A stretch of DNA of 64,000 bases, taken from contig NC_087436.1 in the NCBI RefSeq assembly GCF_036321535.1, positions 61,816,001 through 61,880,000 on the forward strand, read 5' to 3'. The DNA comes from Camelus dromedarius (taxonomy: Eukaryota). The notes beneath the pieces were generated by a model, which was given only the letters and a program-made list of their open reading frames with translations, made no database searches and had not been told where the DNA came from. Position numbers and translations under genes: made by a program. Positions 4,498 through 58,409 of this stretch are shown here, piece by piece. Each line of letters begins with the position of its first letter. Positions within the stretch are counted from its first letter, which is position 1.

Positions 4498-5958
4498 TTA
4501 TTGAAGTATAGTTGATTCTCATGTTTTAGTTTCTGGTATACAGCAAAGTGATTCATATAAATATATTCTTTTTCACATTCTTTTCCATTATATTTTATTA
4601 CAAGATATTGAATATAGTTGTCTGTGCTATACAGTAGGACCTTGTTGTTCATCTATTTTATATATAATAGTTTGTATCTGCTAATCCCAAACTCCCAATT
4701 TATCCCTTCCTACCCTCTTTCCCCTTTGGGGAAACAAACATATATTTGTTTTCTATGTCTATGAGTCTGTTTCTGTTTTGCAAATAAGTTCATTTGTATC
4801 ACTTTTTTTATATTCCACATATAAGTGATATGGTATGATATTTGTCTTTGTGTATCTTAACTTCATTTAGTATGATAATCACTAGGTCCATCCAAGTTGC
4901 TGCAAATGACATTATTTTATTCTTTTCTATGACTGAGTAATATCCCATTGCATATATATCACATCTTCTTTATCCATTCATCTGTTGATAGACATTTAGG
5001 TTGCTTCCATGTCTTGGCTACTGTAAATAGTGCTGCTATGAACATTGGAGTGCATGGAAGTTATCTTTTCAAATGAGAGTTTTCTCTGAATATACGTCCA
5101 GGAGTAGGATTGCTGGACATACAGTAACTCTGTTTTTAGTTTTCTAAGGAACCTCTATAATGTTCTCCATAGTGACTGCACCAGTTTACATTCCCACCAA
5201 TGTAGGAGGGCTTCCTTTTCTCCACATCTTCTCTAGCATTTATTGTTTGTGGACTTTTTAATCATGGCCATTCTGACTGGTGTGAGGTGATACCTCATTG
5301 TAGTTTTGATTTGCATTTCTCTAATAATTAGCGATATTGAGCTTTTTTTCTTATTGGCCATTTGTGTGTCTTCATTGGAGAAATGTCCATTTAGGTCTTC
5401 TGCCCACTTTTGGATTGGGTTTTGTTGTTGTTGTTGTTGTTACTGAGTTGTATGAGCTGTTTGTATATTCTGGAAATTAAGCCCTTGTAGGTCATATCAT
5501 TTGCAAATATTTTCTTCCATTCTGTAGGTTGTCTTTTTGTTTCATTTATCATTTCCTTTGCTGTGCCAAAGCTTGTAAGTTTAGTTCGGTCCTGTTTATT
5601 TATGTTTGCTTTTATTTCTGTTGCCTTTGGAAATTGACCTAAGAAATATTGCTACGATTTCTGTCAGAGACTGTTTTGCCTAAATTCTCTTCTAGGAAGT
5701 TTATGGTGTTGTATCTTATATTTGTCTTTAAGCCATTTGGGGTTTATTTTTATGTACAGTGTGAGGGAGTGTTCTACCTTCATTAATTTACATGCAGCTG
5801 TCCAGTTTTCCCAACACCACTTGCTGAAGAGGCTGTCTTTACTCCATTGTATATTCTTGCCTCCTTTGTGAAAGATTAATTGCCTGTAGGTGTGTGGGGT
5901 TATTTCTGGGCTCTCTATTCTGTTCCATTGATTCATATGTCTGTTTTTGTGCCAATAA
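4498..5958 (-). mobile_element. 5'-truncated L1 (cetartiodactyl-type 3'UTR plus ORF2 C-terminus) with TSD
   Basis: ORF2-like peptide [43 protein letters not shown] (5664-5936). 3'UTR 'ctgtgctatacagtaggaccttgttg'. 14-bp TSD GATGACTAACTTTT (4484-4497) / GATGGCTAACTTTT (5959-5972), with a TT/AAAA endonuclease site on the minus strand. Confidence 0.95.
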
Positions 5959-8667
5959 GATGGCTAACTTTTAAAACCTATTCTTTTCTACTTGTTTTTA
6001 TTAACTTTCAAGCAAATGTGTTCTTGGAGCAGACCTTGTAAATTGCCATCTTCATGTCTCTGATATTACTATTTTCTCATTATCTAACCATCTTTAACCC
6101 ATAATTCAGGATTTAGTCCAGGCCTCATCTCCTCTAGAAAGGCTTTTTCTAGACCAGAGTGGCCTTCCTCTTTCACTCTTATAATTGTTTTCACATCTTA
6201 CAATAGTTTTTCTCTTATTCCTCAAGGACCCTGCATGGGCCTAGAGGAGAAACGTCTTATGTATACTTCTCTGGATTTCCTACAGCACTTAATATAGTAC
6301 TTGTGTATAGTAGATTTCCATTTTTTATTTATTGGATGATTGGTTGATTGCACAAAAGCAACATAAGTACTATTGTTGACCTTTGAGAGTTTACAATATA
6401 ATTATAGTATTGCATTATTTTTGGCTGGAGGAGTCTCAAGGGATTTGAAAGTATTCTTAAATTATGACTCATAAGAAGAAGTCAAGGATACAGCTCAGAA
6501 TCTTTCCCCTATAAAATGAGGGCTGTTGTTCTACAATATCCACTGGAGTTCCTCCTACTCTATTCTGTAGGAATGCAGAGAAGGAATATATTAACTTAGA
6601 GAAGATGGAACTTTTTTAAGTTTTGAGGAATTTAAAAGGTCATCAAGCAAAAGGAAGAGATTCTAGGTGGTAGGTGGTGAGATTCTCACAACAAATAGCT
6701 GGAAGAAGACAGCAAGTAGTCTACATTTAGGTGTTACAAGGAAATTAGCCTGGCGTGGTTGCAGGCTTCTTGAATTGGCATGTGTGACATAACCCTGGAG
6801 AAGAAATATAAGATCCATATAATGCTTTCATCAAAAACATGCAAAGGGAAGCTACTTAAGAGGTAAAACTTAAGATATGAAAGAGAGAGGCTACTTATAG
6901 GTCACAGTGCTGTGCCCACTTAGAAAAACAATGTTTCAGACATTACTTCATGGCTTTTTGCTTTGCAAGCCTAGTATGTATGGCTTATATAAGCATCTGA
7001 ATGTATTTGAAACTATCAGCTTTCTTTTCTTTTTCTCTTTTGAAGTTCTCCAACTTTAAAAAAAAATCTCCAAATTTATAAGTTATTTTAGAAAGTACAC
7101 AATGTGTCAAAGGTTCCCAGAGTTGACTTGGAGAAAACTCTGAACATGTCTTCAAATAAAAAAGAAAGATTTCAAATATTTTATCAATGCTTACTATATT
7201 ACCTCAGCAACACAGCTGGAGAAAATCACTGCAGAAACAGGGTAAGACCTGGTGGTACAGAGTGTGATCTGAGACTGATTAGCCAATAGCTCTCGTAAGC
7301 TGAATCTCCTATGCCAGGATGAACTTGTACTGGCAGGAAGAGTATTATTGAAAGGCAGCAGAATCATTATATCCATTTCTATGAAAAATGAAATACTTAG
7401 AAGGAGGGCCCAGAAGAAATGACTAAAAACTGAAGTTTGCCTCATGAACTCTTTACTGACTGGGTAGGAAAAAAATATATGGAACAGGTGATGGGCTTTA
7501 TTGATGCCATATCACAAAAAGTACTCTATCCAATCCACAGAATTAATTAGAGCATACTTACCACTTTATTTCCAAAGACGGAAATAGAAGATTTATATTT
7601 TCACATAAAGTTCTATTTGTTAATAATCAAGTAAATATTTCTATGCTTCTGTAATGCATAGTTAATATTAGTGTTTCTTAGATTGCCCTAAGTAAGGGAA
7701 AAATTCCCTTTGAATGAAAATCAGAATGTGAATTTAGTTTCTTGGCTTAAACATGTCCCTCCTAGATCTACCTGTTTTCTCTGCACAGTTGTTCATATCA
7801 TCCAAGTGCAGTTAATCTCTCTGTGTAGTGGACATGGCTATTTTTGCAGTGCCTTAAGAGTTTTGTTGGTTGCCAGATCATTAATGGGCTATGAATTATG
7901 CAATAAACTTCTCCTGCACCAATAAAGAAGAAGCCAGCAGTGAAGTCTAGCCTGAGAATAGATGAAATGCAACAATAAAAGCCATAAACACGTTTTTTCA
8001 TTTGAAAGTCCTATTAAGAATTAGAAATAATTCATGTTCAGATGGTTTTGTATGGCAGAGATGCTGTAATGAAAGAGTTTGCAGGACTTTTAAAAAAATG
8101 AAGAAGAAAAGGAGAAGATCATTGCACTTGAAACAGAGCTGTGACTGGGAAGCAGGGAGTTCATTTCCTTTGTTTCCTTCTTCCTGTTAAAGTCTCTGGC
8201 TGGTAAAAGTTACATGTAGAATCAAATTATGGGCCCATATATAATTTATCAGGTGGTTATTTTTATGGAAAAAAAAACTCACTTGCTTTTTTTTTTTAAA
8301 GCACTTTTATGTAATACCATTTTAAATTCATGTTAAAGATCTAAAAATATTTTCATGTTTGAAGCTGATTGTACCAATGATATAGCTCTTTCTAGGTCTG
8401 AGAGTAAAAAAAAATGAGAAATGAATAACATTTCTTCTTAAGCAAAATACCCATTAGAAATGCTTTAGCCTGAAATTGCAGTTTATTTTGAGTGAGTCTG
8501 CCATTATGTGAAATTTGGTCATTTTGCCTTTAGATTTCTACAGGATGGAAAAACACTTGAAATAAGTATGGATAGCACTTAAAAAGCATGTGTATGAGAT
8601 ACACATGGTCAGACACTGTAGTTCTTTCACTTACTAATTGAGCTTGGGACAAATAAGTTACTCTCTT

Positions 8668-11070: not shown

Positions 11071-14000
11071 TCTAAAAGGGAAAAATGTGTTCACATCTGT
11101 TATGCTATACCAAAGGGTATCAGATGCCGTATGCAGATTACATGGAGGGAGATAGACCAGAGCAGGAATCCTTATGTATAAATCCTATCTATTTTATACG
11201 GTCCAGTTAAATGCCACATTTTCTGCAAAATTTTCCCTGATGCCCTCCACCAGAAGTCATCTCCCCTGTTGTAAAATCATTTAGTGCCTTTTTTTTTGTA
11301 AACAGTGTATGGTTTATATTACTGCTAAAATTTGTACCAAGGTGATTTATAAGGCTGCTTTAGCTTTTTTACATGCATTAACACTTTAACACCAAGCTGT
11401 ATGTGAAGTGTTTTGAAAATAACAGGTACAAAATAAGTATCTGGTGGATGAGTGATTAAAAGGGAAGAGAAGGAAGTAAGACAACAGCAGTCTATTTTTG
11501 GAAGCTGCTAAGTAGCTGAATGAGTGGTAACTGAGTGCCCTGAGGCAGTTTCTGAATAAGTGGGAAGAGCTAGAAAATAAAGGGCTTTCCACAAATAATT
11601 CTCCAAACACTTAGAAACTGGTAGCACTGGGTTTGGGGATTAAGGAAGAGTGGCTTCAATAAGGAGAGAAGATGGGTAGGTCTTTAGGTCTGAAATCGTG
11701 ATGGGCTGGGTAGGAGTGAGTATTGTGAGACTGCAGGGACAGGAAAGGATATAAGACATAGTTTTGGGGAAAAAAAAAGCAGCAAAGAACTTAGAGACTA
11801 ACTTCATACAGAAGGGGAGAATGCAAAGTGACATTAGATACAATGTATTGAATTTTATGAACAGAGTGATCAAAGAAGTGTTTTGTTTGATATATTTAAG
11901 TTCTTAAGTGAGGATCTGATGCTTAGTTGATATTTTTATTTCCTCTGCTTTGATAGACATTCTCTAATTCTTACTAAAGACTTTGTTGCTTGACTCATCT
12001 AAACAAACATTCTAAGCCATCACAGAGGCTTCCAGCTAAACCGAAGGTGGAAGGTATGATGAGGAAACACTGTCTTTTAGTGAAAATCCAAATGTTTCAC
12101 TTTGCCGGCAATCATGTGTTGACATTTCCTTAGCATGTGTCCTGTGTTCTCCCTCTTTAGCTTCATACCAAGTCAGCATCCCACACAGATGCTGCTTACA
12201 ATCCTTGCTCTCGTTTTTTCTTGGCTCACTGTCCTATGTTCCCTTACTTGGTCTTCCCTAGTATGTTAGTTCCAGTCATCTGGCTGTTTTATACTTCTTG
12301 CCCTGAACTGTTACGAAGGACAACTTCTGTATGTGAGGTGACACTGATGAAATTATTAGCTTTGTGTCAAAAAACAGTTCAAGATTTTTCTGGAGCACAG
12401 TGATCCCCCCTGCTTTTTTAATAAGTCAATCTTAATTATATAAACTAGGAGTCTTTGATGAAATCTATTAAGAGATTTTCATGATTAAATGGAAGAATCG
12501 GTCAAATCTGCATACTCAGTGGACAAATAAAACACATTCCTTAACTCGGAATTTTTATTTTTTATCTGTTGTTAGCTACAATTAAAAAAAATTTCTCCCC
12601 CTGGTGTTCACACAATTCTATATTTTATTCTTGAAGTCTTTTTCCTCCCCACCTCGATTGTTACTTGTTTTACTTGAAAACATAGTAAGTATGAAATTGG
12701 AAAAAAAAGAAACCGTATATGATATGTGAATAAAATCATAATTTTAATTTAGAAATATTTCAATATCAAAACAAACTTACACAAAGGAATGTTGTAGAAT
12801 TCACAATTTTTGAGAATTTGTAATATGCTGGCTGCTTTGTGACTCTTACCTGTTGAAGTCAGCATCTCCATAGGTGGTTCCTCTGTATCTCTATTTATTG
12901 ACAAGAAATCTGAGAGTTGTAAAGATGATTTGTATGAAAATAAGTGGCATGAGTGTGCTTCGAACCTGTTTTGTCTGACCTTAAAGGTGGTTGTTGTTGT
13001 TTTTTTTTAAGCCACCTTGTTTTCTGTCCTCATGAGGAGCAAGGAGCAGTGTCCAAATGGACTTTTGTAAAAGGGAATTAGATGGCAGTTGTATCCAGAA
13101 GCATCATAAGTTAACAGAAATTTCCTAAAGTGAGAAGATCTGGCTTAGTTGTCTTCTCCCTTACCAACTGCTAGTGGCACCTTGAATGTTCCACTTTGCT
13201 ATAAAGGTGGTAGTAATACACACACTCTTGATGTGAGAATTTAATGAGGGAGTGCATGTGATCATTATTTATAAATTCTAAAGTATTTAACTCTTTCCTG
13301 AGATGAAATTATCATAATAAAATGTTAAAATTTATTTTTAAATCTGATTAATGAGTAATTTTATAATATGTTATATTATATACAATTGACTGAGACTTAT
13401 GATCTCAAACCAATCTTTTATCCTTTAGGACTACATTTTTTTTTTTGAAATATCAGTATAGGAATTTTATTGTATATTGGGGTATGTGTTAAATTTTGCA
13501 CACATTTTCTCATCTTGAATTTACATGTTTTTCTCCCTGAATTATAAAAAATTAAAAGTTTAATATTTTCAATGTTTTATAATTTATTTGTTCAGCCACA
13601 ATTTAGGAAAACACATCCACATTGAAGAAAAATATTCTTTTATCTACTACAGATTTTACATTATTTTAATAAAGGGGGAAAATGAATAGATATAGTAAAA
13701 TAATGTAGTAAATAAAAACCATATATCTATAGAAACACACATACCAGGTAACAGAAAATGGGATGGGATCTGGATAATTTTGTAAATAAATTAATTACCC
13801 ATTCTTCAGAAATGTGCATTTACTGTAGTTTTTCATTTTAAGTTGTTTATATTGCATTAGTGCTTTAGTAATAATATTTATTACATTATTAATTTAAGAA
13901 TTGTGTTCCTGAACTATTATATATTTTTTATTTTCTGAATTTAATAATAACGAGAAATCTGAATCAGGGATATTTTGAGAGTACAGGATCCACCAACTGA

Positions 14001-30000: not shown

Positions 30001-32037
30001 TGGATGTGGTATTATTCTTCAGTGACTTCCATTACCTTGTGAGGTGTTAACTTTGGAGGAATAACTTCTGATATTATGAAACTAGCTCAAAGTTTGGCAT
30101 AACTATGTATTACATTGTAAGAGAAACTCCTTAAGGAAAAAAAACGCACAAAAAAAAAAAAAAAAAACCAAAACTTCTGCTTTCTGCCCACACTCCCATC
30201 TCAAAGATAAACATTCAAGAAAACACAGCATCTACAGAGGCCTTGAATGTGGGGAATAACATCATTTTTAAATCTCATTTTCTTAAGTATGTTTCTCTTA
30301 CACTTCACCCATCAAAAATTATGCTTTTAATTCTAATGACTCTTGACTAAGGTCTGTTTGAGTGTATCCTTATGTTGCAGAGATATTTTGCTCAAATCCT
30401 GTTTAGATTATGTATTTTTTATTAAGTTATTCATGTTTTCCTGTCTCAGTAACAAATGGTCCAAAATGTTTTTTTTAACAATCATAAAATCTGTTTGCTA
30501 ACTGCCCAAACTTTTACAAAATTCAGTCCCTCAAATTTCATTGTCTTAAACTTAAAACTCACCCATGCAATTATCTGAAGTTCATCCATCATCTTTGATG
30601 ATGTTCTGATTTCCCTGCCACTTGGTGAATGATGATTACCAACTTTGCATTGTCTTTCTGCTTTTACTGTTAAGATTTTTCCTTTAGATTTGAGGTTGCT
30701 GTTTTCTTATAAATTCCTATAAATTGTTTCTTAATATTTTCTTAACTTTGAATCTTGTACCTATGTTACAATTTGATTTTTTGGTTCTGTGACCTCAGGC
30801 TACCTGCACACAATTTTCAGAGTGTAGGGAGGAAGAACATGTTAGAAAACATATGTGAACTCACAAGAAGATACATTAGATTACCCCAATATTTTAGCAG
30901 AAAGTACTCCATTTCTCTGTAGACTTCATAAAACACACACTACGAAATAGCTGAGGCGAATGGGAAGGACAGTTCTAACAGCAAAGTTTCTTAAAGAATG
31001 GAGAACTTGGTCTTGCATCTGTCCTCTCAGAATTCAGCAACTGGAGGAGATGATGTGGCCAAGAAAGGTGAACGGTGACTTCAAACGACATGGAAGCCTC
31101 ACAGGTGAGGCTCGAAGGTCCATCTATACTTTTTACTGTCCTGATTTGGAACATATTCCTGTTTTGCATAAAATGGACATGTGTTCTTCAAACCCTAATA
31201 AAATGAATATGTGAGCCATGTCTAAGACAATTTCCTGTTACTCACAATATTAGGAGAGAGTCAAGAGGGAGATTTTTTCAAGTTAAGCTTATTACATGTG
31301 AACATGTTTAATCTTTAGAATGAGAAAATAGATATGAAATAAAGGTTTTTGTCATTACTTTCTAGATGCTATGCCTGTCAGTTTTTCTTACTTATATTGC
31401 TCTCCAGATATTCTTCTGTTTAAATCGAGAACTTTAGAATTCTGACAAGCTTTCCTACACATTTTCTAAGCTTCCGAGAATATTTCAATAGTTGAATTTT
31501 AGCTGCCAATCATTATGCATTCTCTAAGTGAAGACTTGTTACATAATATTTTTTATAACTTTTATAATAGAAATCTATAATTATCCTCATTTTTGTTGTG
31601 AAGATTTCAACACATTGAGAGTTTGTTTAAATCATCTTAATTTTTGAAAATAGGGAAAGCCTATCAGAATACCAGTCTTCCTACTAGTTTGTGTGCTCTG
31701 TGAAGGCAGATTCTACAGTGTACATCCTCAGGGGCTCTCATTTATTAAATGAATGAAAAAAATGAAGCAAATTTAAAGTTGAGAGTTACGTTCCCATTGT
31801 CTTGACTCGCCGTCTTTCTGTTTTCCTTAGATTAGGTCAACTACTAGAAGGGTTTTTCCAAAAGGATATACTAGATGACATTTGGAGTGACATTTCTTTA
31901 TAAGCATGTTTATTTTGAATGAATTTATGTATGTAAAGCATTTAGGACAGTCCTTGCTCAATGTAAAGATACATTTTTTCTTTTAACTTTATTATTATTA
32001 TAAAGTGTCTATTTATGATTTAAATTCATATAAATGC

Positions 32038-32106
32038 TACTAATACCCACTCATTAAGGAAGAAAAAGCATTTTGCTTTTTCTTCCTTAATGAGTGGGTA
32101 TTAGTA
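32038..32106. repeat. Perfect inverted repeat, 33-bp arms, 3-nt loop
   Basis: TACTAATACCCACTCATTAAGGAAGAAAAAGCA (32038-32070), TTT, then the exact reverse complement (32074-32106). Confidence 0.98.
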
Positions 32107-33469
32107 ACCACTCTCTTGATTCTTAAAGCTACTTTTCTCTTGTGAGAGCACCTACTCTAAGCCGTACCATAGATCAGGGATTTCTTCATACCTATTTGAT
32201 TAAAGAAACGCCCTTTTCTGTTTCTGACATGATGAATCGCTCTTGCTCTTTGAAAGGTGGCAGTGCAACATTAGTTTGATTTTTGTTTTGGGCTGTAATG
32301 ATCTTTGCTAATGGCCTATAGCAATAGATTCAGATGAAAAATTAAAATGTTTACTGTCCTTCCTCTGTATTATGTAAAAAGAGTTCCTCAGAGAACACCG
32401 TTTTCATCATCGAGGATGATTTATCCTGCAGGATTTATTTTGCTGTGAAATTCAGAGAACAGACACATTTCTGACTTTATATACCGTCTCATCCCTTCAT
32501 GAGGCAACAAGAAGTGAAATAGGCTCTCCGGAAACATTGAAAGCAGATACTCCTTGAAACAGTTTGAACTATTCAACATCCACAGCTAATTCTCTTATGC
32601 TTTGCTAAAATAGTGCAGTATTTAAATACTGAAAAAGCAATATACTGATAATAAAACCATTTCCAGGCAAAGAACTTAGAACAGGTATTTAGTCTGGGTA
32701 GTTTCATTATAAATGTCTGTGTGTCCTAAAAATATTTAAAGCTAATGCAAAGCAATGAACTGCATCTGGAGGAGAAGGCACATACCTGGTTTAATCAAAA
32801 CCTGATATGGGAAGGGATTTTTTTAAATGAAGATTCCCTTAAATAGAAAAACACTCTTTGTTGGGCTATAAATGCACAGATGTAATTAATTTAACTTTAT
32901 ATATGATTCACTTAACCTAAAGTTATGAAATGACTTCTGTATGCCAGGCATTTCTCCATTACCAGAAAATTCTGTGGTAATAAATAAGGCAGGTTAAATG
33001 TGTTAGCATATTAGAGCCCACAAACAAAAATTTCCAATAAAAAATAAAGTGTTAATTCTGACCATAGTTGAATATTTCACTGACTGCAACAAAAATGAAT
33101 TTATTTACAGTGCTTTCTCATTTCTGTCGTTTTGTTCCGTGTGGTTTTCAACTGTTGTGTATAAGTGTCCAAAATAAGCATGATATGCTCTGAGTGCACA
33201 AGAAAGAAACAGTAAGAAGAAACATCTCAGATTTAAAATGAATCAATTCTTGCTAATTAGGTGATAGAAGGCTGTTAACTATATTATAACCAAATCATGA
33301 AAAACATTAGTTTAAAAGTTTCTTAATATGTTTACATTTTCCAATAAGTTCTTTATTTCTTTTTCCCTGCTGCTCTGTCTCTCTCTTTTTCTTTTTGGTA
33401 ACTAAATTTTTCAAACGACTATTATAGTGTTGTTTACCAATTTTGTTTCTTTGCCTCTAATCTTTAGGG

Positions 33470-33660
33470 TAGTGGTTGAATGAGGTCACACAGATCACAC
33501 CCTAGTCCTGCTCCAGTGGGGAGTGGAGACAAACACTTAAATTTTCTAAACTTTAGCTTCCTTACCTGTGCACACAGATAATTATAGTACTCATCTCATA
33601 TTATGGGAATTAAATGAGATTATGCACATCAACTCTTAATATAAGTGTTCAATACGTATT
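33470..33660 (+). mobile_element. MIR SINE
   Basis: 'ctttagcttccttacctgtg...ataattatagtactcatctcata...aattaaatgagat'. Confidence 0.65.
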
Positions 33661-37596: not shown

Positions 37597-37640
37597 GCAG
37601 GATGCTTTTATAAATAAATCCAGGGAACTGTATGCATGTC

Positions 37641-37712
37641 TGCACTTGAAGCCAAACTTGCACTTGAAAACACACCTGAACTTGTACACAAGTCTGCACT
37701 TGTCTTCAGGAG
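37641..37712. repeat. Degenerate 18-bp tandem repeat, 4 copies
   Basis: tgcacttgaagccaaact / tgcacttgaaaacacacc / tgaacttgtacacaagtc / tgcacttgtcttcaggag. Confidence 0.8.
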
Positions 37713-52908: not shown

Positions 52909-53938
52909 AGAGTTTTCTCTGGACAATTGCTGGATCATTTAGCGATTCTATTTTTAGTTTTTTAAGCAATCTCCATATTATTTTCCATAGTGGCTGCACC
53001 AAATTACATTCCCTCCAACAATGGGAGGATTACCTTTTCTCCACACTCTCTCCAGCATTTACTGTTTGTGGACTTTTAATAATGGCCATTCTGACTGGTG
53101 TGAAGTGATACCTCATTGTAGTTTTGATTTTCATTTCTCTGATAATTAGCAATACTGAGCATTTTTTATGTACCTATTGGCTATCTGTATGTCTTCATTG
53201 AAAAAATGTCTGTTCAGGTCTTCTTCCTACTTTTTGATTGGGTGGGTTTTGTTTTTTTGTTTTTTTTTTAATTATTGAATTGAATGAGCTGTTTGTATAT
53301 TCTGGAAGTTAAGCCCTTGTCAGTCATATCATTTTCAAATATTTTCTCCCATTCTGTATGTTCTCTTTTCTTTTTGTTTATGGTTTTGTTTGCTGTGCAA
53401 ATGTTTATAAGTTTAATTAAGTCCCATTTGTTTATTTTTGGTTTTATTTGCATTGCCTTGGGAGACTGACATAAGAAAACATTGCAGCAATTTATGTCAG
53501 AGAATGTTTTGTTTGTGTTCTCTTCTAGGAGATTTATGGTGTCTTGTCTTATGTTTAAGTCTTTCAGCCATTTTGAGTTTACTTTTGTGTATGGTGTGAG
53601 GGAGTGTTCTAACTTCATTGATTTACATGCAGCTGTCCAGTTTTCCCAACACCACTTGCTGAAGAGGCTGTCTTTACTCCATTGTCTGTTCTTGCCTCCT
53701 TTGTCAAAGATTAATTGACCAAAAGTTTGTAGGTTTGTTTCTGGGCTCTTTATTCTGTTCCATGGATCCATATGTCTGTTTGTGTGCCAATACCATGCTG
53801 TTTTGATTACTGTGGCTTTGTAGTATTGTCTGAAGTCTGGGAGAGTTATGCCTCCAGCTTCTTTCATTTTCTTCAATATTGCTTTAGCAGTACTGGGTCT
53901 TTCGTGATTCCATGTAAATTTTAGGATTATTTATTCTA
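52909..53938 (-). mobile_element. L1 fragment (same family as 4498-5958), ORF2 C-terminal part, no 3'UTR tail
   Basis: 202-aa ORF (53268-53876) [25 protein letters not shown]...[11 protein letters not shown]...[10 protein letters not shown]. Confidence 0.95.
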
Positions 53939-56730: not shown

Positions 56731-58409
56731 AGTTATTCCTATAGTCACTGATATTTTGTTCATTTCTTCACCTGAAGCAATTCATCTGAGGATTTTCACA
56801 TATGTGGTTTCAAAATGATTCAACCTTGAACAGGTCCCTTTGGTTTTTATTATCTTCGTGACTGTTAGGCTTTTATAGTAACTTTTCTGAGATCGTGACT
56901 TCTCTGTTTTCTATTCTAAACTGATATAGAATTCTAACATAAAAGCTGATGATATACAAATGCTACATAAGATTAAAAAAATCTTGTATGTGCATATACA
57001 TCTATGTATATTAAGAAAACATGTATCTGGGAAACTTACATTAGAGAATGACTAGCATTTCAAGGCAGTTATTTACTTTGCAAAAAATCCACTGTCGAGT
57101 TGTCTTTTTAATTGTGAGATTCCGTTGCATTTTAAATTATTGCATTATGAATAATTTGATTTAGAGTTGATTTTCAGGAGCTAAGTTATTACAGAAACCA
57201 AACTGCATTTTTCATAAGTAACATGGAAACTTAGCTTTCATTTGGGTGTTTTTGAAGTATGAACAAATCCCTTTGAAAAGTATTCAAGGGAAAATGTACA
57301 ATGGAAAAGAAATGGGAAAGATTGTTTCACTGCTGTTCTAAAAGTTAGTATCCTGTAACTGCAAAATCAGACACTGGGACCAAATAATTTATAGACCCTG
57401 CACTTACTTATTATAGAGTGAATGTTAGCAGAGACATGTCATGGATGTACTAAATTATTTAAGCTCCTCTTTGACTATTATTTCCTGTTGTCAGTCACTG
57501 CCTCTACCTAATTTAAAGTTCATTTAAAATGAACTTTAGAATAATATTACTCTTTTGAGTCTGTTAGCTCTATTAAAAGGTTTAGCAATTTTGAAAAATA
57601 TGCCTGGTTTTATGTTTGTGTTTTCTCTAGGCTTTATGAAACTGCAAAAAGTGATTTCTCTCTCTAATATTTAATCTGTAAGCCATTCAAACATAAGCAA
57701 ACCAAAATTAATACACTGGAAAATATTCAAATGTCTTCAAAATTTGTCTGTGAAACATCCCTGGCGGTATTTCATGCCAATACCCAGAAATATCTATTAC
57801 AAATGTTACGTATGTTTTGTCTGATCCCTGGCAGCAAATTATGGTCAGAGACTGAGATTGTCTTTGCCAATAATTTACTTAACACAGGTTCACTGCAGGA
57901 ATTATAATAATTTCACAAGCCAATATTTTACAGAATACTATTTCTTAATGAGCCAATAAAGACATAACATACTCTAAACCAATAATAGATTAACTATATT
58001 ATTGTTTTGGGCAAGAGGGAGATGAAAGGAGTAAGGTCCAAATTTAGTTGAGGTGAACGTTTCTCTGAGTTGGTCCTTGGGAGAATCGGTTTAGCCAGCC
58101 ACTGAGCTGGTGTCCAGCTGCCTGTGCAAAACTGGAAGCCGCTTGTTGCTGAGCACCATGCTAGGGAGTTAAGACACCAGATGACTATAAAGAAGAAACC
58201 AACCATGCTTATAGATCCAACATTAAAGCTTCCCTAGTCGTCTTCACTTTCCTGTATTCTCACTGCAACAGTCCACTTCTTTAACCCAAGCTCATGGTTC
58301 TCCTTTTCCTCCCAGACCTCTTTATTGGGCCTGGGCTTTCTAGAACTATTTCACACTCTCTCTCTCTCCTCACATCACTCCTCACATCACTCATATATTG
58401 TATATATAC

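Follow-up and report, generated by a model that had tools for sequence, protein, structure and literature searches.

A perfect 33-bp hairpin in dromedary DNA, probably the product of one-step fold-back copying

The DNA analyzed here is a 64-kb stretch of the Camelus dromedarius genome (64,000 nucleotides of contig NC_087436.1; hereafter the window, by whose positions all coordinates are given). The GC content of the window ranges from 32% to 41% per 2-kb bin. It contains 98 stop-to-stop open reading frames (ORFs) of at least 70 amino acids, and a Pfam scan of 5 of these 98 listed ORFs gave no matches. No exons were recognized by eye across the 36 kb from 14000 to 49999, which is not a rigorous test, no tRNAs were found in the window, and no Rfam family reached its gathering score there. 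By appearance, the window belongs to a gene desert or to an intron of very large size. Positions 53268–53927 on the minus strand match human LINE-1 ORF2 (E 6e-77), and by this match the DNA of the window is mammalian. Two minus-strand L1 ORF2 fragments, at 53268–53930 and 5256–5963, are 75–93% alike over several blocks, and the former has an open stretch of 219 aa that matches human ORF2p. No young multi-copy SINE family was seen among the 20 largest direct-repeat families of the window. An imperfect 18-nt tandem repeat of 3.5 copies was seen at 37640–37702.

The feature under study is a pair of 33-nt arms, complementary at 33 of 33 positions and lying 3 nt apart. Its parts, and those of its junctions, are as follows:

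32032..32037, plus strand: 6-nt left flank, the reverse complement of 32068–32073 (p 0.033; p 0.007 and 0.09 in other versions of the statistic, all post hoc).
32036..32037, plus strand: G-C at the left junction, read from the junction analysis either as a 2-nt re-copy of 32068–32069 or as the last two bases of a 32-nt templated copy in which one base later changed.
32038..32070, no strand assigned: 33-nt left arm, which is probably the new copy (from the sequence, the inverted-repeat scan, and the junction statistics).
32068..32076, no strand assigned: apical GCA/TTT/TGC mini-stem, a candidate 3-bp primer for fold-back synthesis (seen in the sequence; the primer role is suggested by the fold-back literature).
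32071..32073, no strand assigned: spacer TTT, 3 nt (from the sequence and the fold).
32074..32106, no strand assigned: right arm, 33 nt, probably the template (from the sequence and the inverted-repeat scan).
32107..32108, plus strand: right basal junction (from the junction analysis).

Outward of the arms come a mismatch between C32037 and A32107, a pair between G32036 and C32108, and then further mismatches. The two strands differ at this point, as 32036–32037 opposite 32107–32108 give a G-C pair with a C/A mismatch on the plus strand and a G-C pair with a G-U pair on the minus strand. On the plus strand, the outer G-C pair has a predicted probability of 0.11, which leaves an effective stem of 33 bp. 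On the minus strand, the C/A mismatch becomes a G-U wobble, the outer pairs have probabilities of 0.87 and 0.97, and the stem therefore continues unbroken for 35 bp. An earlier note on this DNA, made from the letters alone, had extended the stem to 35 bp through the mismatch and the G-C pair; it had the bases right, and the pairing it proposed is poorly predicted on the plus strand but continuous on the minus strand. At the apex, the closing A-U pair of the spacer has a probability of 0.66, so the working loop is 3–5 nt.

Perfect inverted repeats with a spacer of at most 30 nt were then counted across the window. There are 71 with arms of 8–14 nt, followed by the single one of 33 nt, which is thus the sole perfect arm pair longer than 14 bp in the 64 kb; the chance expectation for a 33-nt perfect arm pair in a window of this length is about 3e-13. 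Folding gave z = −13.3 as RNA and z = −14.8 as DNA (−35.8 kcal/mol), and in each case none of 200 shuffles folded equally well. A tandem-repeat search ruled out a tandem repeat. In the 64-kb window, 22 nt of the arm were not matched a third time with up to three mismatches allowed. The earlier description of 33/33 arms around a 3-nt loop was thus borne out by the sequence and the scan of inverted repeats, as was, by the tandem-repeat search, the statement that this is not a simple repeat. Several smaller features were also recorded. A small AT-rich stem (5 bp with a 7-nt loop) lies directly to the left of the hairpin at 32014–32030 and is probably due to chance. Perfect 12-bp arms occur at 57514–57538 with a 1-nt spacer, which could be a smaller fold-back scar, and at 13657–13707 with a 27-nt spacer. 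Stretches at ~31925–31970 and ~33500–33660 resemble decayed MIR fragments; ~70 nt separate the first from the hairpin to its right, without overlap.

Fold-back chimeras typically take the form of a perfect hairpin with a tiny loop, and the hairpin here has this form. The possibility raised in the earlier note that it is a fold-back artifact of assembly or library was weighed against read sets. In this test, 100 31-mers were sampled from 31600–32600, and 24 runs were listed, ranked by the share of words they contain. All 100 sampled words were present in 16 of the 24 listed runs (six studies, nine samples). Thirteen of these 16 carry a flag as runs from which the assembly may have been built, and the support consists of sampled words per run rather than reads across the locus, both of which leave some room for an artifact. 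The remaining 3 full holders, from two studies, are unflagged and nonetheless contain every sampled word. Of the 968 distinct words in 31600–32600, 51 either span the left junction or contain both arms, and under random sampling the chance that none of these 51 was drawn is only 0.0033 (0.099 for the 21 both-arm words). Unique sequence also resumes on either side of the hairpin. The full word sets in 16 runs, unflagged ones included, together with these sampling odds, make an assembly fold-back unlikely, and the hairpin is very probably not an assembly artifact. Four further sets, which are recorded or probable RNA contigs (two recorded, two guessed), contained 0.43–0.73 of the words. The last four runs, three with a share of 0.00 and one raw-read run outside the index, were left out of the evidence. 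The ranking by share speaks to the presence of the hairpin, not to its fixation.

The junctions bear on which arm is new. The two bases before the left arm repeat 32068–32069, a 2-nt overlap, whereas an overlap was seen in none of the six registers in which the right arm would be new. If 30–32 nt were taken out of the left arm, a palindrome of 10–12 bp would remain, or else a quasi-palindrome (6 of 7) with the loop unchanged; the reading with a 2-nt overlap and that with a 32-nt copy plus one later change imply an identical earlier state. Three versions of the junction statistic, with random flanks from the window as the null, gave post hoc p values of 0.033, 0.007, and 0.09. The last of these, a microhomology statistic (5 of 6), is not significant and was rejected as support on its own. 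As the p values are post hoc and not mutually independent, the direction of copying is a hint only. What they hint at is that the left arm would be an insertion of ~30–32 nt primed on the GCA/TGC mini-stem, and the left junction, with its 2-nt overlap and a 6-nt flank mirroring the apex, fits what a near-pure insertion would leave.

We consider it likely, and hold with good though incomplete confidence, that the hairpin is genuine and single-copy, probably has no function, and arose by fold-back as a one-step local inverted duplication. The 3′ end of a nascent or broken strand would have folded back at an inverted seed of 3 bp, or up to 6 of 7 bp, on either side of TTT; in the register suggested by the junctions, this would be the minus strand, ended at the position of 32068 and folding on the GCA/TGC seed. 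The folded end would then have copied ~30–32 nt of the strand just behind it, and the extended end would have returned to the original sequence, losing few bases or none. In four-point template-switch notation, the event would be written 3-2-1-4 / 1-4-3-2. The same product could come from a stalled replication fork or from a double-strand break with Pol theta-type stem-loop extension; these are not separable from one sequence, and we lean slightly toward the fork.

Fold-back inverted duplication is a well-documented class of mutation, and the hairpin is statistically extreme yet ordinary. Single inverted repeats (types 1-4-3-2 and 3-2-1-4) are reported as the majority outcome of template switching in great apes, where length is gained in 65% of events and copied fragments reach 128 nt, with a median of 12 (PMC7954356), and 872–1121 non-repeat template-switch events are reported per human, with the longest at 97–180 bp (PMC9435742). 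At yeast breaks, fold-back insertions are described as mostly ~5–34 bp with junction microhomology of 0–5 bp (PMC11724301), and at mammalian and fly breaks inverted templated insertions of 3–30 bp are primed on 1–3 bp, with Pol theta extending stem-loops from two terminal pairs (PMC11292364). What argues for fold-back here is a reverse-complement copy of the immediately adjacent sequence, 33/33 and 3 nt apart, and the perfection of these arms around so small a spacer, in unique AT-rich DNA, which greatly exceeds what chance would give. Against it, a copy of 30–32 nt falls in the upper tail of the reported lengths (median 12), and the one-step origin is drawn from a single sequence; the search for an outgroup among the runs found none, the top-ranked full holders all being one organism. 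The earlier proposal of local template switching thus agrees with the anatomy and with the literature and shares this dependence on one sequence. We infer the one-step origin, the left arm as the new arm, and neutrality, the last being an assumption. Against a functionless hairpin, the RNA contig sets carry 43–73% of the words of the 1-kb region, so transcription is possible.

Substitution rates lie in the range of 1–2.5e-9 per site per year. At rates of 2.5–1e-9, zero changes in 66 sites bound the age at 18–45 My at most (95%), and a single change in 70 sites puts the point estimate at 6–14 My, within very wide limits. Identity of the arms could also be maintained by re-copying. The earlier argument that zero mismatches imply a recent origin is therefore weak, and what survives of it is the upper bound.

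The same stem had been noted earlier as resembling a pri-miRNA. On this rival reading, a young miRNA gene specific to the lineage, or an endogenous gene of shRNA-like kind, would be transcribed here, and Drosha and Dicer would cut the hairpin to a ~22-nt RNA. Microprocessor rules give an optimal stem of 33–39 bp and a pairing cut-off of 82% (PMC5340965), and the stem of 33–35 bp lies inside this optimum with pairing above the cut-off. A basal UG is found at −14/−13 in one of three registers per strand (the 13-bp register on the plus strand, the 12-bp register on the minus strand), although on the plus strand it rests on the pair with a probability of 0.11. At least 18 human miRNAs in MirGeneDB are reported to have been made by template switches (bioRxiv 2023.04.19.537475), and the RNA contig sets contain part of the region. 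The loop, however, is 3 nt, or 5 if the closing A-U pair frays, below the ≥10 nt proposed for efficient cutting (8–16 nt are enriched, and 3–23 nt are reported as compatible; PMC5340965). Among the enhancing but not obligatory motifs, there is no apical UGU/GUG and no mismatched GHG in three registers on either strand, and CNNC lacks the +16–18 placement, occurring only at +9 to +11 on the plus strand and not at all on the minus strand. The reservations that the earlier note itself had entered on the loop, the apical UGU, and the position of CNNC hence hold on both strands, and of its pri-miRNA-like geometry the stem length and pairing stand and the basal UG is marginal. Suboptimal pri-miRNA hairpins can gain from a good neighboring hairpin, but no comparably stable neighbor was found, the next-best folds in the 2.3 kb scanned (almost all to the left) reaching ~−30 kcal/mol. 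No Rfam miRNA reached its gathering score in the window; the 19 sub-threshold matches are structure-driven, generic hairpin fits, the best scoring 42.9 bits where the gathering score is 130. Neither a host exon nor a promoter was identified. The RNA contig sets total ~790–980 million letters against ~2,000 million for the DNA sets (roughly 40–50%), so their word shares of 0.43–0.73 would be near the genome-wide background and add little. The reported base rate is also low, with 57 of 6,054 human genic template-switch hairpins (0.9%) in miRBase (bioRxiv 2023.04.19.537475). Because the arms match perfectly, the 22-mers from the two strands would be indistinguishable. A 12-nt arm motif, sought in both orientations and with T or U, was absent from the supplements of PMC12467276 and PMC7275387, whose entries are mostly names without sequences; from that of PMC9933125, where a control motif was absent too; and from four of five supplement files of PMC3508611, where novel miRNAs were called on the bovine genome. 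These camelid catalog negatives carry almost no weight. The seven papers listed for the motif in the full-text literature were all unrelated by title. Beyond stem length, pairing, and the marginal basal UG, there is no positive support for the hairpin as a microRNA, and we regard this reading as very improbable. Slightly less credible still is its more specific form, a camelid-specific small-RNA gene that a single fold-back insertion created on the axis of a short palindrome, whose arms still pair perfectly, which is processed in shRNA-like fashion despite a loop of 3–5 nt, and which possibly segregates.

The TA dinucleotide is the target duplication of Tc1/mariner elements, and short all-hairpin miniature elements (MITEs) such as MADE1 occur in mammals. 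With TA at both outer ends (32038–32039 and 32105–32106) and this mammalian precedent, the hairpin might be a Tc1/mariner-type MITE of 65 nt, with terminal inverted repeats of 31 nt, inserted at a TA site. The terminal TA is, however, expected about 1 time in 9 at the local base composition (66% AT; an estimate), there is no second copy within 64 kb, and the junction is accounted for by local copying. The 22-nt arm piece also lacked an exact match in metagenome and viral collections, a weak point given how little mammalian DNA these hold. Perfect arms would further require recent DNA-transposon activity, and we know of none in the host group, which counts against a MITE; we give this origin very little credence. 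A vector or plasmid origin was rejected, with no match among 72,556 plasmids. A selected DNA or RNA structure, such as a cruciform, a site for a dimeric factor, or an ADAR substrate, with arms kept perfect by selection or repeated re-copying, would draw on the stability of the DNA hairpin (−35.8 kcal/mol) in AT-rich flanks and on the adjacent small AT-rich stem at 32014–32030. Human inverted duplicates are, however, barely enriched for expression in the reported comparison, at 7.8% versus 7.4% for mirror controls (PMC5398296). A selected structure is also most unlikely, and a cruciform or an ADAR substrate is a candidate only.

Read as a fold-back duplication, the hairpin matters little, being one more scar of a known mutation process. 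Human genic DNA amounts to ~1.3 Gb. A template-switch study reports 6,054 miRNA-sized template-switch hairpins in human genic regions (bioRxiv 2023.04.19.537475). Over that amount of DNA, this corresponds to ~0.3 hairpins in every 64 kb, most of which would have shorter or imperfect arms. The dromedary hairpin is nevertheless a clean example for asking whether fork switching or break repair is the source of such hairpins. If a small RNA did come from the hairpin, it would exemplify one-step miRNA birth outside primates and rodents; the template-switch miRNA study is described as covering primates and mice only (bioRxiv 2023.04.19.537475). If the small-RNA gene were both true and segregating, animals with and without the hairpin would give a snapshot of de novo miRNA birth.

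Among systems that are already described, the hairpin resembles short-range template switches (3-2-1-4 / 1-4-3-2; PMC7954356, PMC9435742, bioRxiv 2023.04.19.537475) as a single perfect inverted repeat with a tiny spacer in AT-rich unique DNA and an apparent gain in length. It differs from those reports in a copy of 30–32 nt against a median of 12 and in being known as a single sequence rather than an ancestor–descendant pair. The likeness to fold-back insertions at double-strand breaks, by Pol theta-mediated end joining (TMEJ; PMC11292364) or by yeast Pol delta with NHEJ (PMC11724301), is in the size of ~30 nt, the 2–3-bp primer, the far-junction microhomology of 0–2 bp, and little or no deletion. 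In those reports, the favored loop in flies is 6 nt (PMC11292364) and the yeast spacer is 41 nt (PMC11724301), against 3 nt here, and their events arose at induced breaks, whereas ours is known as sequence. Tc1/mariner MITEs such as MADE1 are likewise short, nearly all inverted repeat, and bounded by TA at both ends, though the dromedary hairpin has no copies in the window, belongs to no recognizable family, and has a junction explained by local copying. The miRNAs born by template switching (e.g., hsa-mir-4713, hsa-mir-576, and mmu-mir-3086; bioRxiv 2023.04.19.537475) share with it a Microprocessor-compatible stem gained in one step. In that study, 110 of 111 are expressed, 99 of 111 are intragenic, and 105 of 111 carry later mutations, whereas the dromedary hairpin has a 3-nt loop and no identified host gene and is known from its sequence.
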